Assembly: GCA_036514635.1 (NCBI GenBank)
Contig: DATBWU010000164.1
Location: forward strand, 337-64,336
Source of the DNA: Anaerolineae bacterium
GTDB lineage: Bacteria; Chloroflexota; Anaerolineae; Fen-1058
Direction of reading: 5' to 3'
Length of the DNA stretch: 64,000 bases
Part shown: positions 12,395 through 46,862 of the stretch, in pieces
How positions within the stretch are numbered: position 1 is the stretch's first letter
How the letters are laid out: every line of letters begins with the position of its first letter
The notes under the pieces: generated by a model
Databases searched by the model: none
Seen by the model: only the letters and a program-made list of their open reading frames with translations
Told to the model about the DNA's origin: nothing
Program-made: the position numbers and the translations under genes

Positions 12395-12462
12395 TAAACC
12401 GCAGAGAGCGCAAAGAACGCAGAGCAAAATCATCTTTGCGCTCTCCGCGTCCTCTGCGGTTA
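12395..12462. repeat. palindromic word repeat of the AACCGC...GCGGTT family in the lpd-E2 spacer
   Basis: aaccgcagagagcgcaaagaacgcagagc ... ctttgcgctctccgcgtcctctgcggtt. Related copies lie at 16269-16338, 27383-27442, 40091-40201 and inside mutS (42761-42853). Confidence 0.7.
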
Positions 12463-40090: not shown

Positions 40091-40201
40091 GAACCGCAAC
40101 CCCGCACACGGCACGCGGGGCAGGCGACGCCAAGAAAAACTCAATTCAACTTCGCACCCGCACCGCCCCGCGTCTTTTTGCGGGGTTGCGCCTTCGCGGT
40201 G
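40091..40201. repeat. AACCGC...GCGGT-family palindromic element
   Basis: gaaccgcaaccccgcacacggcacgcggggcaggcg ... tgcggggttgcgccttcgcggtg. The left ~35 nt are nearly identical to 42771-42805 inside mutS. Confidence 0.7.
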
Positions 40202-42116: not shown

Positions 42117-42234
42117 CCTCACCCCCCGGCCTCCTCTCCCGAAGTGGAACGGCGCACTTCGAGAGAGGGGGAGTGGGTTCTCCCCTCTCCTGACGACGGG
42201 TGTTGGGTCGTCAGGAGAGGGGCTGGGGGTGAGG
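42117..42234. repeat. composite palindromic element with CCTCACCCCC...GGGGGTGAGG arms
   Basis: The arms cctcaccccccggcctcctctcc / ggagaggggctgggggtgagg enclose three perfect hairpins (cgaagtg..cacttcg, gagaggggga..tctcccctctc, cctgacgac..gtcgtcagg). Confidence 0.75.
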
Positions 42235-42354: not shown

Positions 42355-45177
42355 ATGGACACCGAACGCATGACGCCGATGCTGGCGCAGTATCGGCACA
42401 TCAAGGCGCGGTTCCCCGATGCGATCGTGCTGTTCCGCCTCGGCGACTTTTACGAGACGTTCGACAGCGACGCCAAAACGGCCGCGCGCGAGCTGGAGCT
42501 GGTGCTGACCTCGCGCTCATTCGCGAAGGGCGTGCGCCTGCCGATGGCCGGCGTGCCGCACCACCACGTGCAGTCGTACATCGCCAAGCTGATCGAGCGC
42601 GGCTACAAGGTCGCCCTGGTCGAGCAACTCGAAGACCCGAAGAAGGTTAAGCGGCTGGTGAAGCGCGACGTGATTCGCGTGATCACGCCAGGCACAGTCG
42701 TCGAAGATGCGTTGCTGCGCGCGAATAGCGAGAACTACTTAGCCGCAATTGTCAGTGACTTAACCGCAAAGAACGCAACCCCGCAAACAGACGCGGGGCA
42801 GGCGGGCGCAGAGAATAAATCAACAAACTCCGCGCTCTCTGTGCCCTCTGCGGCGAGTTATGGCCTCTCGATCATCGATCTCTCCACGGGCGAATTTGCG
42901 ACGACGCAGATCGAAGGCGCGGACGCGGAAGCCAGGTTGCTGGACGAGTTGCAGCGCGTGCAGGCCAGCGAATACGTGCTGCCGCCTGCGTTGATGAATG
43001 ACGAGCGTTTCGTCGCCCACCTCCAGGCGATTCGCCCGGCGCGGCTGTCGCCCGTCGACGAGCACGTGTGCGAGGTCGAGACGGCGCGGCGAGTTTTGAC
43101 CGGGCACTTCCGCGTGGCGACGCTCGACGGCTTTGGCTGCGAGCACCTGCCGCTGGCTGTGTCGGCGGCGGGCAGCGCGCTGCATTACCTCCTCGGCAAC
43201 CAGCCCGGCGGCGCGAGCGCCTCACCGCTGCTGCACCTCAATCATCTCTGGACGTTTTCGCTCGCCGAGTACATGACGCTCGATGTGGCGACGCGCCGCA
43301 ACCTGGAACTGATTGCGTCGCTTCCTTCTCCCTTTCAGGGAGAGGGGCCGGGGGTGAGGACTTCGCCGCGCAGCCTGTTCGGCGTGCTCGATGAGACCGT
43401 GACGGCGATGGGCGCGCGGCTGCTCAAGCGCTGGATTCAACAGCCGCTCCTCGACCTGGCCCAAATTCACGCCCGGCTCGACGCCGTAGACGAGCTGCAT
43501 GGTGATGCGTTCTTGCGCGAGGACCTGCGCCGGCTGCTCGACGGCCTGTACGATGTCGAGCGGCTGGTGGGACGCATCGGGTTCGGAAATGCCAATGCGC
43601 GCGACGTGATTGCGTTGAAGCACACGCTCGCCCGCCTGCCGCACATCAAGGCGCGGCTCGCGCAGGTCGAAGCGGCGCGCCTGCGCGAATTGGAGCGCAA
43701 CCTGGACGAATCGCACGCTTCGCACGTCACGCACCTGATCGACCAGGCGATCGTCGACAATCCGCCGATTCTCGTTCGCGAGGGCGGCCTGATCAAGCGC
43801 GGCTACGATGCCACGCTCGACGCGCTGCGCGATCAGGCTGCGCGCGGCAAGCAGTGGTTGAATGAGCTAGAAGAGAAAGAGCGCGAGCGAACCGGCATTA
43901 AGAATCTGCGTGTGCGTTACAACGAGGTGTTCGGTTTTTTCATCGAGGTGCCGCGCAGCGCCGCGCACTTGATCCCGAAAGACTACGAGCGCCGCGCGAC
44001 GATCACGCACGCCGAGCGTTACGTCACACCGGAACTCAAGGCGAAAGAGACGCACATCCTGGCAACCGAAGATCGCGTGAAGGACCTGGAATACGATTTG
44101 TTCGTTCAGCTTCGCAGCACGCTCGCCCAACACGCGATGCAGTTGCAGACGATGGCGCGGATTCTGGCGCAGCTCGACGTGCTCGTCGCGCTGGCCGAAG
44201 TCGCCGCGCGCTGCGCCTACACCAAACCGATCGTGGATGACGGCGACGCGATCGAAATTCGCGAGGGCCGGCATCCGGTCGTCGAGCGGTTCTTGCGCGA
44301 CGAGCCCTTCGTGCCGAACGATGTGCGGCTCGACGGCGAGTCGCAGCGCGTGATCATCCTCACCGGGCCGAACATGTCGGGCAAGAGTGTGTTCGTGCGG
44401 CAGGTGGCGCTGATCGTCTTGATGGCGCAGATCGGCAGCTTCGTCCCGGCGAGCTTCGCGCGCATCGGGTTGACCGATCGCATCTTCACGCGCGTCGGCG
44501 CGAGCGACGACATCGCCCAGGGCCGCTCGACGTTCCTGGTCGAGATGAGCGAGGCCAGCCACATCTTGCGGCACGCCACGCCGCGCAGCCTGGTCGTGCT
44601 CGACGAGGTGGGGCGGGGCACGTCGACCTACGACGGCATCTCGCTGGCGTGGGCGATTGCCGAAGAACTGCACAACGCTGTCGGCGCGAAGACGCTGTTC
44701 GCCACGCACTATCACGAATTGACGCAGCTCGAATCGTCCGACTCGATCCGCGAGCGCGGCGGCGCGATCAAGAATTTCACGATGGCGGTGAAGGAGCAAG
44801 GCCGCGAAGTGGTTTTCCTGCGGCAAGTGATTCCGGGCGGCGCGGAGAAAAGTTTCGGCATTCACGTCGCACGGCTGGCGGGACTGCCGTCGCGCGTGGT
44901 TGATCGGGCGGAGGAGATGCTGCAACGGCTGGAGGAGAGCAGGCAAAGAGAGACTGGGAGCGAGGGGGAAGAGGAGTATGCGCTTTCGATGGATGCGCAG
45001 GGGATCGTGAAGGAAGAGCGCGCCGTGTACGACACGCGAATCGAAGCCTGGCGAGGTATTCTTCAGCAACTACTGACCGTGGATATTGCGAACATGACGC
45101 CGCTCCAGGCGTTGAATCTGCTGAACGACGTTCAGGTGAGGATCAGGGCGTTGGGTGATCGGGTGCGTGAAGATTAA
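42355..45177 (+). CDS. mutS: DNA mismatch repair protein MutS
   Basis: MTPMLAQYRHIKARFPDAIVLFRLGDFYE, Walker A GPNMSGKS, and STFLVEMSE. The ATG at 42355 is preferred because the ORF-track start at 42229 lies inside the upstream repeat. Confidence 0.95.
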   Translation: MDTERMTPMLAQYRHIKARFPDAIVLFRLGDFYETFDSDAKTAARELELVLTSRSFAKGVRLPMAGVPHHHVQSYIAKLIERGYKVALVEQLEDPKKVKRLVKRDVIRVITPGTVVEDALLRANSENYLAAIVSDLTAKNATPQTDAGQAGAENKSTNSALSVPSAASYGLSIIDLSTGEFATTQIEGADAEARLLDELQRVQASEYVLPPALMNDERFVAHLQAIRPARLSPVDEHVCEVETARRVLTGHFRVATLDGFGCEHLPLAVSAAGSALHYLLGNQPGGASASPLLHLNHLWTFSLAEYMTLDVATRRNLELIASLPSPFQGEGPGVRTSPRSLFGVLDETVTAMGARLLKRWIQQPLLDLAQIHARLDAVDELHGDAFLREDLRRLLDGLYDVERLVGRIGFGNANARDVIALKHTLARLPHIKARLAQVEAARLRELERNLDESHASHVTHLIDQAIVDNPPILVREGGLIKRGYDATLDALRDQAARGKQWLNELEEKERERTGIKNLRVRYNEVFGFFIEVPRSAAHLIPKDYERRATITHAERYVTPELKAKETHILATEDRVKDLEYDLFVQLRSTLAQHAMQLQTMARILAQLDVLVALAEVAARCAYTKPIVDDGDAIEIREGRHPVVERFLRDEPFVPNDVRLDGESQRVIILTGPNMSGKSVFVRQVALIVLMAQIGSFVPASFARIGLTDRIFTRVGASDDIAQGRSTFLVEMSEASHILRHATPRSLVVLDEVGRGTSTYDGISLAWAIAEELHNAVGAKTLFATHYHELTQLESSDSIRERGGAIKNFTMAVKEQGREVVFLRQVIPGGAEKSFGIHVARLAGLPSRVVDRAEEMLQRLEESRQRETGSEGEEEYALSMDAQGIVKEERAVYDTRIEAWRGILQQLLTVDIANMTPLQALNLLNDVQVRIRALGDRVRED
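42761..42853 (+). repeat. AACCGC-family repeat copy embedded in frame in mutS
   Basis: taaccgcaaagaacgcaaccccgcaaacagacgcggggcaggcg...ctccgcgctctctgtgccctctgcgg is about 93 nt and encodes DLTAKNATPQTDAGQAGAENKSTNSALSVPSAA. Confidence 0.7.
43321..43362 (+). repeat. GGAGAGGGGC(C/T)GGGGGTGAGG repeat arm embedded in frame in mutS
   Basis: cagggagaggggccgggggtgagg (43336-43359) matches caggagaggggctgggggtgagg at 42212-42234. It encodes PSPFQGEGPGVR. Confidence 0.7.
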
Positions 45178-45221: not shown

Positions 45222-46862
45222 ATGATCCATATTCTCCACAAATCTGTCGCCGAGCGCATTGCGGCGGGCGAGGTGGTCGAGCGGCCCGCCTCGGTGGTGA
45301 AGGAATTGATCGAGAACGCGATCGATGCGGGCGCGCACGCGATTGCGATCGAGATTCGGCAGGGAGGCGTGCCGCTGATCCGCGTGAGCGACAACGGCAG
45401 CGGCATGTCGCGCGAGGATGCGCCGCTATCCGTCGAGCGTTTTGCCACGAGCAAAATCGCGACGGCAGACGACCTGGACGTGATTCGGTCGCTCGGCTTT
45501 CGGGGCGAGGCGCTGCCGTCCATCGCCAGCGTGTCGCAGTTGGAGATTGTGACGCGAACACGCGACGAGATCGAAGGCACGCGAGTGCGCGTGATCGACG
45601 GTCAGGCGCAGATCGGGGCCGCCGGTGCACCGATCGGCACGCAGGTGACCGCGCGCGATCTGTTCTACAACGCGCCTGCACGGCGTAAGTTTCTCAAGTC
45701 GCCGCTGCGCGAAACCGAGTTGATCCAGAAACAGGTGATGACGTACGCGCTGGCATATCCGGACATCGCGTTTCGACTCGTCGTGGATGGGCGGGAGAGC
45801 GCGGGTTGGGTGGCGGCGGCTCCATTGGAGCGAATCGGCGCGGCCTGGGGACGCGAGATCGCGGCGGAGATGGTCGAGGTCGACCAGACCAGTGTTGACC
45901 TGCGCGTGCAGGGATTCGTGTCACGGCCCACACTCGCGCGCGCAAGCCGCGAGTGGCAGATGTTCTTCGTCAACCGCCGCCCGATTCGGTCGGGTCTCCT
46001 CGCCGTGATGCTGGAGCGCCCGTATGCCGGGCGCTTGCCGCTGAATCGCCATCCACTCGCCGTGATTCAGATCGACCTTGACCCGCGTCTGGTAGATGTG
46101 AACGTGCATCCGCGCAAGGCGGAGGTCCGGTTCTACCAGGAGCGCGCGATCTACAACGCCGTCACACACGCCGTCGAGCAGGCGCTGCGCGGTTTTCCGC
46201 TGCTCCAGCCTGCTACAACCGATTGGTCATTCGCCGATGTTGCAGGCCCAGAGCCCGGTTCCGCGCCCGACCCGTACACTTTGCGCGAATCGCGCGTGGA
46301 GTATGGATCGGGGCCGTGGCGCGCGGTCGGGCAGGTTCACAATACGTACATTCTCGCGCAGAGCGCAGACGGCCTGGTGATCGTCGATCAGCACGCGGCG
46401 CAAGAGCAGGTCTTTTACGAGCGACTGACCGGAGGCAGTAATCAGAAATCAGTCATCAGCCGCCAGGTGCAGGTGATGCCGCAAGAAGCCGATCGATTGC
46501 TCGCGCATTTAGAGGAGTATCGGTCGCTGGGGATCGATATCGAGCCGTTCGGGGAGAACACGTTCCGGGTGCTGAGCCTCCCGGCATTCATCCGGGTCGA
46601 TCCGGCGGAACTGATTACCGCACTCTTACAAGAGCACGAGCGCTATCGCGCGCTGGAAGGCGACGCGCTGCGCGACAGACTCGCTTCGAAAGCGGCTTGC
46701 CTCAGCGCGATCAAAGCGGGCGATGTTTTAGATTCTGCTCAACAGCAGGCGCTCTTGGACGAGTTGCTTCAGGCGTATTCCCCGGCGACCTGCCCGCATG
46801 GCCGCCCGGTGTTCGTGACGCTGAGACTGGAGGAACTGGAACGTAGGTTAGGCCGGCGCTAG
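45222..46862 (+). CDS. mutL: DNA mismatch repair protein MutL
   Basis: IAAGEVVERPASVVKELIENAIDAG, DNGSGM, C-terminal dimerisation domain, and a terminal CPHGRP motif. Confidence 0.95.
   Translation: MIHILHKSVAERIAAGEVVERPASVVKELIENAIDAGAHAIAIEIRQGGVPLIRVSDNGSGMSREDAPLSVERFATSKIATADDLDVIRSLGFRGEALPSIASVSQLEIVTRTRDEIEGTRVRVIDGQAQIGAAGAPIGTQVTARDLFYNAPARRKFLKSPLRETELIQKQVMTYALAYPDIAFRLVVDGRESAGWVAAAPLERIGAAWGREIAAEMVEVDQTSVDLRVQGFVSRPTLARASREWQMFFVNRRPIRSGLLAVMLERPYAGRLPLNRHPLAVIQIDLDPRLVDVNVHPRKAEVRFYQERAIYNAVTHAVEQALRGFPLLQPATTDWSFADVAGPEPGSAPDPYTLRESRVEYGSGPWRAVGQVHNTYILAQSADGLVIVDQHAAQEQVFYERLTGGSNQKSVISRQVQVMPQEADRLLAHLEEYRSLGIDIEPFGENTFRVLSLPAFIRVDPAELITALLQEHERYRALEGDALRDRLASKAACLSAIKAGDVLDSAQQQALLDELLQAYSPATCPHGRPVFVTLRLEELERRLGRR

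Follow-up and report, generated by a model that had tools for sequence, protein, structure and literature searches.

The Rickettsia palindromic elements (RPEs; Ogata et al. 2000) are palindromes of ~150 bp which, according to the summary in PMC10969869, are dispersed, lie in frame in unrelated housekeeping genes and are translated there as a fold-compatible extra peptide; in some families nearly half of the copies are genic. Repetitive extragenic palindromic (REP) sequences and bacterial interspersed mosaic elements (BIMEs), which form REPtrons together with the REP-associated tyrosine transposases (RAYTs; PMC3733652), are abundant and mostly extragenic hairpins that occur in mosaics, and a few copies bracket a small candidate mobilising gene. 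Those miniature transposable elements with inverted repeats (MITEs) that produce in-frame fusions, such as ERIC, BOX and the QMITE1 of Coxiella (PMC10969869, PMC5896051, PMC3184786), are small non-autonomous inverted repeats that are sometimes intragenic and read through. Each of these likenesses applies to the family of an element found in the mutS gene of an Anaerolineae bacterium (assembly GCA_036514635.1), within a stretch of 64,000 nucleotides of contig DATBWU010000164.1 that is hereafter called the window. The element, located at 42760-42855 on the forward strand, is most probably (probability of about 0.85) a gene-less copy of a genomic family of hairpins with arms made of short tandem words, which lies in frame in mutS as a tolerated, near-neutral, RPE-like insertion in a hot loop of the protein.

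The genome holding the window (G000; related genomes are designated G001 etc., contigs by C and a number, and ortholog DNA by L and a number) is a metagenome bin of 4.69 Mb in 417 contigs with 62% G+C and an estimated contamination of 5.4%. Copies of the word-hairpin family have a common architecture, which includes an [A/C]ACCGC terminus, 2-3 tandem CGCNNAG words with an 8-9-nt period, an AT-rich loop, complementary words and a GCGGT[T/G] terminus. A simple copy comprises 56-72 nt. The mutS copy is 96 nt long, which equals 32 codons, corresponds to residues 136-167 of MutS and reads LTAKNATPQTDAGQAGAENKSTNSALSVPSAA. Its left terminus and first word (42760-42773, TTAACCGCAAAGAA) align to the family termini [A/C]ACCGC-NNAG and are followed by a nested hairpin module at 42774-42804 (CGCAACCCCGCAAACAGACGCGGGGCAGGCG), 31 nt long and standing in place of one 7-nt word, which adds 24 nt (8 codons) net. 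Further downstream are the inner left-arm word (42805-42815, GGCGCAGAGAA), the AT-rich hairpin loop (42816-42828, TAAATCAACAAAC) and the right arm (42829-42855, TCCGCGCTCTCTGTGCCCTCTGCGGCG), the latter translated as SALSVPSAA. The left terminus, words, loop and right arm of the family are all present in this copy, and its right terminus GCGGCG is one mismatch away from GCGGT. The tryptic peptide of the predicted MutS insert is NATPQTDAGQAGAENK.

The initial annotation, made from the letters of the window, had placed an in-frame repeat at 42761-42853; the repeat is indeed present and in frame, and the full element encloses that span. Comparison of positions 42740-42875 with the whole genome (blastn-short) revealed 33 further matches at E<=1e-3, with the best ones covering 54 nt at 91% (E=2e-12), 50 nt at 92% (E=2e-12) and 37 nt at 97% (E=8e-12). 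The nucleotide similarity to intergenic copies noticed at first therefore holds under alignment statistics. The core match reported upstream of prkA was recovered at 40095-40126 (32 nt at 90.6%), together with its inverted partner at 40165-40190 (26 nt at 96%), within a composite intergenic copy at 40092-40200 carrying a nested module in each arm. This composite hairpin would form a branched, cruciform-like structure. Resemblance of the right end to 12441-12460 is weak when taken alone (~19/24 by eye); it was accepted as family membership because 12397-12461 is a canonical intergenic element without the nested module (AACCGCAGAG...CTCTGCGGTT).

A structural census (two words with an inverted partner within 260 nt and >=12/16 arm matches) detected at least 169 elements in G000 and 2 arm pairs in the reversed-genome control. 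Arm matches numbered 215 in G000 and 0 in the control, 5-53 in the genomes of the same genus, and were patchy across the rest of the class. Owing to the interrupted arm and the GCGGCG right terminus, the mutS copy is missed by both pattern-based censuses, and all family counts are therefore lower bounds. According to a home-made gene caller based on codon usage (3,791 genes, 85% coding), 136 of the 169 elements are intergenic, 23 overlap an open reading frame (ORF) end or lie within 90 nt of it, and 10 are situated deep inside ORFs. Thus, ~80% of the copies are intergenic although the genome is ~85% coding, with ~6% genic; the family is strongly depleted from coding DNA. The deep hosts include GltB (glutamate synthase), MetH (methionine synthase), a Mur ligase, a hydantoinase and two membrane glycosyltransferase-like proteins, and the Pfam domains found in them identify the hosts as real genes. 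The description of the repeat as intergenic is therefore correct for most copies but not exclusively, as at least five other conserved genes hold in-frame copies. A preferred reading frame (TA[EK]xAE...SAxSAV) was considered and can be regarded as a tendency only, because it is used by ~7/10 genic copies while 39% of the intergenic copies are compatible with it.

The host gene, mutS (MutS-A paralog), occupies 42355-45177 on the plus strand and encodes 940 amino acids from the likely start ATG at 42355, the frame being open from a GTG at 42229. All of the Pfam domains MutS_I-V were found in its product, and the mismatch-binding GDFYE (Phe-X-Glu), Walker A GPNMSGKS and Walker B VLDEVGRGTS motifs are intact, so that the protein has everything expected of a MutS1-type protein. 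The ratio of nonsynonymous to synonymous divergence (dN/dS) was 0.15-0.20 against five orthologs. Directly 3' of mutS lies mutL (45222-46862, plus strand; Pfam DNA_mis_repair, MutL_C and HATPase_c_3). The gene is intact and under purifying selection; a decaying pseudogene is excluded by the domains and motifs, the downstream mutL and the dN/dS values. Calling it an essential repair gene, as was done at first, was too strong, because G000 has a second MutS1-type paralog at C122:29640-30440 (869-aa open frame), in which the equivalent loop is short. Paralogs of the C122 type were found in nearly all relatives, and the type encoded in the window is patchy, occurring in 9 of 22 genomes of the family.

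The position of the insert was established by alignment and modelling. With phmmer, MutS residues 5-135 correspond to residues 9-139 of E. coli MutS and residues 167-283 to E. coli 141-248, and the Pfam MutS_II match begins at residue 166 (profile position 11). In 48 of the 54 Chloroflexota homologs aligned the spacing at this point is 10 residues, compared with 40 in the window protein, which bears out the early proposal of an extra loop where canonical MutS has a short turn. The AlphaFold2 model, computed from an alignment of these 54 homologs (mainly 40-47% identical), had a mean predicted local distance difference test score (pLDDT) of 88.5 and a predicted template modelling score (pTM) of 0.85, with the blocks over residues 141-160 falling to pLDDT 54-56; the insert is modelled as a coil between strands 128-134 and 168-175. 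Foldseek matched the model to E. coli MutS 1e3m and 3zlj (TM-score 0.76 when normalised to query length, E ~1e-26), as well as to Taq MutS. On the strength of the phmmer and Pfam alignments and of the model, the insert is predicted to be a disordered excursion at the beta-hairpin turn with which connector domain II begins (E. coli 139/141). The earlier reading, a normally intergenic repeat now in frame in mutS and tolerated as a surface loop, is supported by the family membership, the low-confidence coil, the length of only 5-10 residues in distant orthologs, the intact domains, the low dN/dS and the retention of the insert in four assemblies.

Many family copies carry an extra left-arm hairpin of the form GCRACC-CCGC...GCGG-GGCAGGCG. 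All 68 GCRACC-hairpin-GGCAGGCG modules in the genome sit in left arms of the word-hairpin family, flanked by family words, and the mutS module is the only one that lies deep in a gene. The exact module pattern was present in 36 copies in G000, in one copy each in G003 and G020, and in none of 38 other relatives. The mutS element of G003, a genome of the same genus, has the same nucleotide junction without the nested module, a difference of 24 nt (8 codons), and the degenerate mutS element of G016 also lacks it. Since both elements are without the module, its acquisition in mutS of G000 was a later, lineage-specific event. It could have come either from insertion into the arm or from gene conversion by a module-bearing copy.

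Among relatives, the same MutS loop contains different repeats. The AACCGC word-hairpin family occupies it in G000, G003 and G016; another palindrome, CCCTCACCCC..CTCCCCTCTCCC-loop-GGGAGAGGGG..GGGGGTGAGGG, which is read as ...GEGxGVR, was found in G001, G004, G006 and G017; and G032 has a third palindrome. Distant MutS orthologs showed no repeat in the loop, which has only 5-6 residues there. The loop length varied from 7 to 81 residues among 120 database homologs, and many of these loops look like translated word hairpins. Two homologs in the AACCGC state were followed to their DNA (L141, L142), and both have clean family elements that share the site and the frame. A small tree places G016 (AACCGC) and G006 (other palindrome) as sisters (support 100/98), and in a 121-protein tree built without the loop the AACCGC state must have changed at least 3 times, given the well-supported branches. 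A single ancestral origin of this state is not supported on these grounds; recombination between alleles is a possible source of its scattered distribution. The loop is a hot spot where repeat families succeed one another, and its filling does not follow the gene tree. The original idea of a hairpin repeat that landed in mutS is accordingly right in that a normally intergenic repeat is now in frame, but not as one clean landing, given the turnover at a hot spot and a nested second insertion. The segment was not encountered in orthologs from genomes free of the family, as the genomes of G003 and G016 also hold it. The loop of protein P0005 (MutS-A) comprises 81 residues with three tandem REGGEASPLLA units, and other MutS-A loop fillings are of the TTDDGRR/SSVVRRP type and look like translated complementary arms.

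A similar pattern was observed in two other proteins. The MetH element (G000:C239:31063-31126; orthologs L114-L126 were compared) lies in an interdomain linker which in four other genera has no insert and is conserved (KPKAREIEYAP). This linker holds the AACCGC element in G000, G004 and G002, whereas G003 and G001 have the GEG palindrome there and G014 a tandem array of AATTTCAA; the pattern of filling across genomes differs from that of MutS. The GltB element (G000:C131:11291-11342; L128-L137 compared) is located in the linker between the central and FMN domains, which is longer by 60 nt in G000 and by 78 nt in G004, with an empty 69-nt site in nine relatives.

At the RNA level the element forms a stable structure. 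The sense RNA of 42755-42862 gave a three-way fold of -45.7 kcal/mol (z -4.5), and none of 200 dinucleotide shuffles was as stable. The hairpin might be a regulatory RNA in the mutS-mutL message which slows ribosomes or attracts RNases and sets the MutS and MutL levels and thereby the mutation rate. Both this stability and the better conservation of the arms than of the loop between G000 and G003 speak for such a role, yet it is an improbable explanation. With mononucleotide shuffles, genic copies had z values of -10.5 (MetH of G000), -7.9 (MutS of G003), -1.0 (MutS of G016) and -0.4 (MutS of L142). Decay of the hairpin is thus compatible with retention of the insert, and this speaks against a conserved role in regulation. 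Moreover, the loop of relatives is filled by unrelated repeats or by none, and like elements are present in MetH and GltB, neither of which has any regulatory logic in common with mutS. An intrinsic terminator was rejected, as no U-run follows the stem, and no Rfam family at E<=1 overlaps the element. A regulatory role of the hairpin, or an effect on the mutation rate, is unsupported. As a separate observation, the arm mismatches of the G003 mutS element are mostly purine transitions giving G-U pairs in the sense RNA, so that pairing is better in the RNA hairpin than in the DNA palindrome, a possible sign of strand-specific selection or of a mutation bias.

It is very unlikely that the insert is an adaptive protein loop recruited for a new interaction, e.g., with MutL or another partner. 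Most MutS-A homologs do have some extension at the loop, and in E. coli the connector domain reportedly participates in MutL loading (the work on 5akb-5akd). However, close relatives have unrelated loop sequences, with lengths over the 7-81 residues mentioned above, the insert is predicted to be disordered, and its composition is set by the DNA words. Among four near-identical alleles, two of the three variable residues fall in the 32-residue insert, for which the estimated chance is ~0.003. As for the possibility that a low-complexity coding stretch resembles GC-rich repeats by chance or composition, or that the bin was mis-assembled, the 417 contigs, the 5.4% contamination, the tendency of repeats to break or mis-join contigs and the several orthologous contigs that end at the loop would allow for it, but it is extremely improbable in view of E values down to 2e-12 over 50-54 nt with termini, words, module, loop and right arm all in common, controls yielding 0-2 matches, flanks of continuous in-frame mutS, related elements at the same site in G003, G016, L141 and L142, and a 90%-identity protein cluster of four sequences from separate assemblies of three sources (JGI, NCBI and ENA), all with the complete insert, which excludes an assembly artefact.

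The reading preferred here, that of a tolerated in-frame repeat, can be put as a series of steps. A word-hairpin copy was fixed in frame at the beta-hairpin turn opening connector domain II of MutS, and one left-arm word was later replaced by the 31-nt nested module that is amplified almost only in G000. On translation, the element would yield a disordered loop of 32 residues in which Ala, Ser, Thr, Glu and Gln are abundant; the loop is tolerated rather than useful and persists because the site is structurally permissive. Its 9-nt words, the 24-nt net module and the scarcity of stops in any frame make the element frame-safe. Copies might be spread by a copy-in process linked to small PDDEXK_3 (GxxExxY) nuclease genes between identical arms, which would consist either in break-and-repair from another copy or in gene conversion between copies.

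Eight intact PDDEXK_3 genes (PF13366) were found in G000. Three of them, at C40:4611-4961, C379:6648-6998 and C329:15788-16093, are bracketed by AACCGC-family arms, with ACCGCNNAG <=80 nt upstream and CTNNGCGGT <=60 nt downstream (rough chance ~2e-4 per gene). The five other copies (C53, C155, C409, C339 and C12) are bracketed by other words, namely CACGAAG, ATCCGTG, CGCAGAT, AACGAAT and CGGACA. No transposase with family arms was found in the genome, and none of its six Y1 transposase genes (PF01797) is flanked by family termini; only PDDEXK_3 genes were found between identical arms. The matches listed in a literature search for GxxExxY deal with other subjects.

Several points weigh against the reading as a tolerated, copied-in repeat. 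The intergenic and genic classes of the census depend on the home-made gene caller. The arms of the G000 and G003 elements are more alike than their loops (9/15 by eye) or than a synonymous divergence (dS) of ~0.5 predicts, and some force must therefore keep them similar, whether homogenisation, re-insertion or selection on the hairpin. That the insert is translated is deduced from the intact frame, and the connection between PDDEXK_3 genes and arms is an association and not a mechanism. Comparison of filled and empty sites, the flanks of which are diverged, revealed no target-site duplication at the mutS, MetH and GltB junctions. In MetH and GltB the native residues were partly replaced rather than simply interrupted, and therefore gene conversion, or insertion plus deletion, fits better than cut-and-paste. 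No insertion event was caught directly, and no pair of filled and empty alleles was found within one population.

A broader proposal is that the MutS-A connector loop and the MetH and GltB linkers are landing pads for PDDEXK_3-associated, frame-safe word hairpins, namely PDDEXK_3/GxxExxY cassettes together with their gene-less copies, which would preferentially enter existing hairpins so that families nest within or overwrite one another. This proposal is tentative, and the odds are rather against it.

An in-frame palindrome with a preserved fold, the property by which RPEs are recognised, was found in MutS, MetH, GltB, the Mur ligase and the hydantoinase, and the fold of MutS is kept in the model. 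The likeness to RPEs is an analogy only, since host and architecture differ. Compared with the RPEs, the present copies belong to a free-living soil Chloroflexota, simple copies have 56-72 nt instead of ~150 bp, and ~6% rather than nearly half (as in some RPE families) are genic. The arms consist of tandem words with an 8-9-nt period and accept nested modules, and among relatives different families take up one and the same protein loop. Unlike in REPtrons (PMC3733652), the termini are AACCGC/CACCGC...GCGGT and not GTAG or CGTC heads, the bracketed gene encodes a PDDEXK_3 nuclease fold, and REPs are rarely translated. A REP/RAYT system was rejected, as there is no GTAG/CGTC head and 0/6 Y1 (IS200/IS605-like) transposase genes are flanked by arms. 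As regards the MITEs, no target-site duplication was seen at the three junctions, where the flanks are diverged, and the search for a parent insertion sequence encoding a transposase found none; in place of unique terminal inverted repeats, the arms consist of word arrays. The small dispersed repeats of cyanobacteria, which Elhai et al. reportedly described in Genome Research in 2008, are said to be very small, to nest in one another and to occur occasionally in genes. The present family differs from them in sequence and phylum, and its nesting is directional, with the module only in left arms. Taken together, the word-built arms, the nesting, the turnover of families at one protein site and the gene between arms distinguish the family from RPEs and from in-frame MITE fusions.

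The mutS gene of the window has a second in-frame repeat insertion at 43324-43359 on the plus strand (PSPFQGEGPGVR), which belongs to another hairpin family of the form CTCCCCTCTCC-loop-GGAGAGGGGCCGGGGGTGAGG. At E<=0.01, this family is represented in the genome by 24 further copies, most of them between genes, and the insertion was not found in G001, G004, G017 and other orthologs. The mutS contig of G003 ends within an insertion of this type. Domain II of MutS in G017 and G016 (L006, L005) carries a lineage-specific insert, NQP-TPT(PA)LPR(G/S)T(G/E)EG..., and domain III of G017 MutS has a 10-residue insert, LAVAQTEPQGLP; both are possibly repeat-derived.

The finding means that translated selfish palindromes are not confined to Rickettsia. 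In this free-living Chloroflexota lineage, word hairpins are a routine route for the growth and turnover of protein loops and linkers, and the 9-nt and 24-nt arithmetic explains how a repeat survives within a repair gene that still works. Insertions of this kind lengthen orthologs and make them more diverse, cause metagenome contigs to break where they lie and confuse alignments. The mutS element joins together a lineage-specific burst of modules, a hot loop sampled in 120 homologs and a candidate mobilising gene family of unknown function. If the landing-pad proposal is true, the evolution of loops and linkers in Anaerolineae proteins would have in word hairpins a major source that is still active, and a large uncharacterised nuclease family would gain a defined DNA partner.

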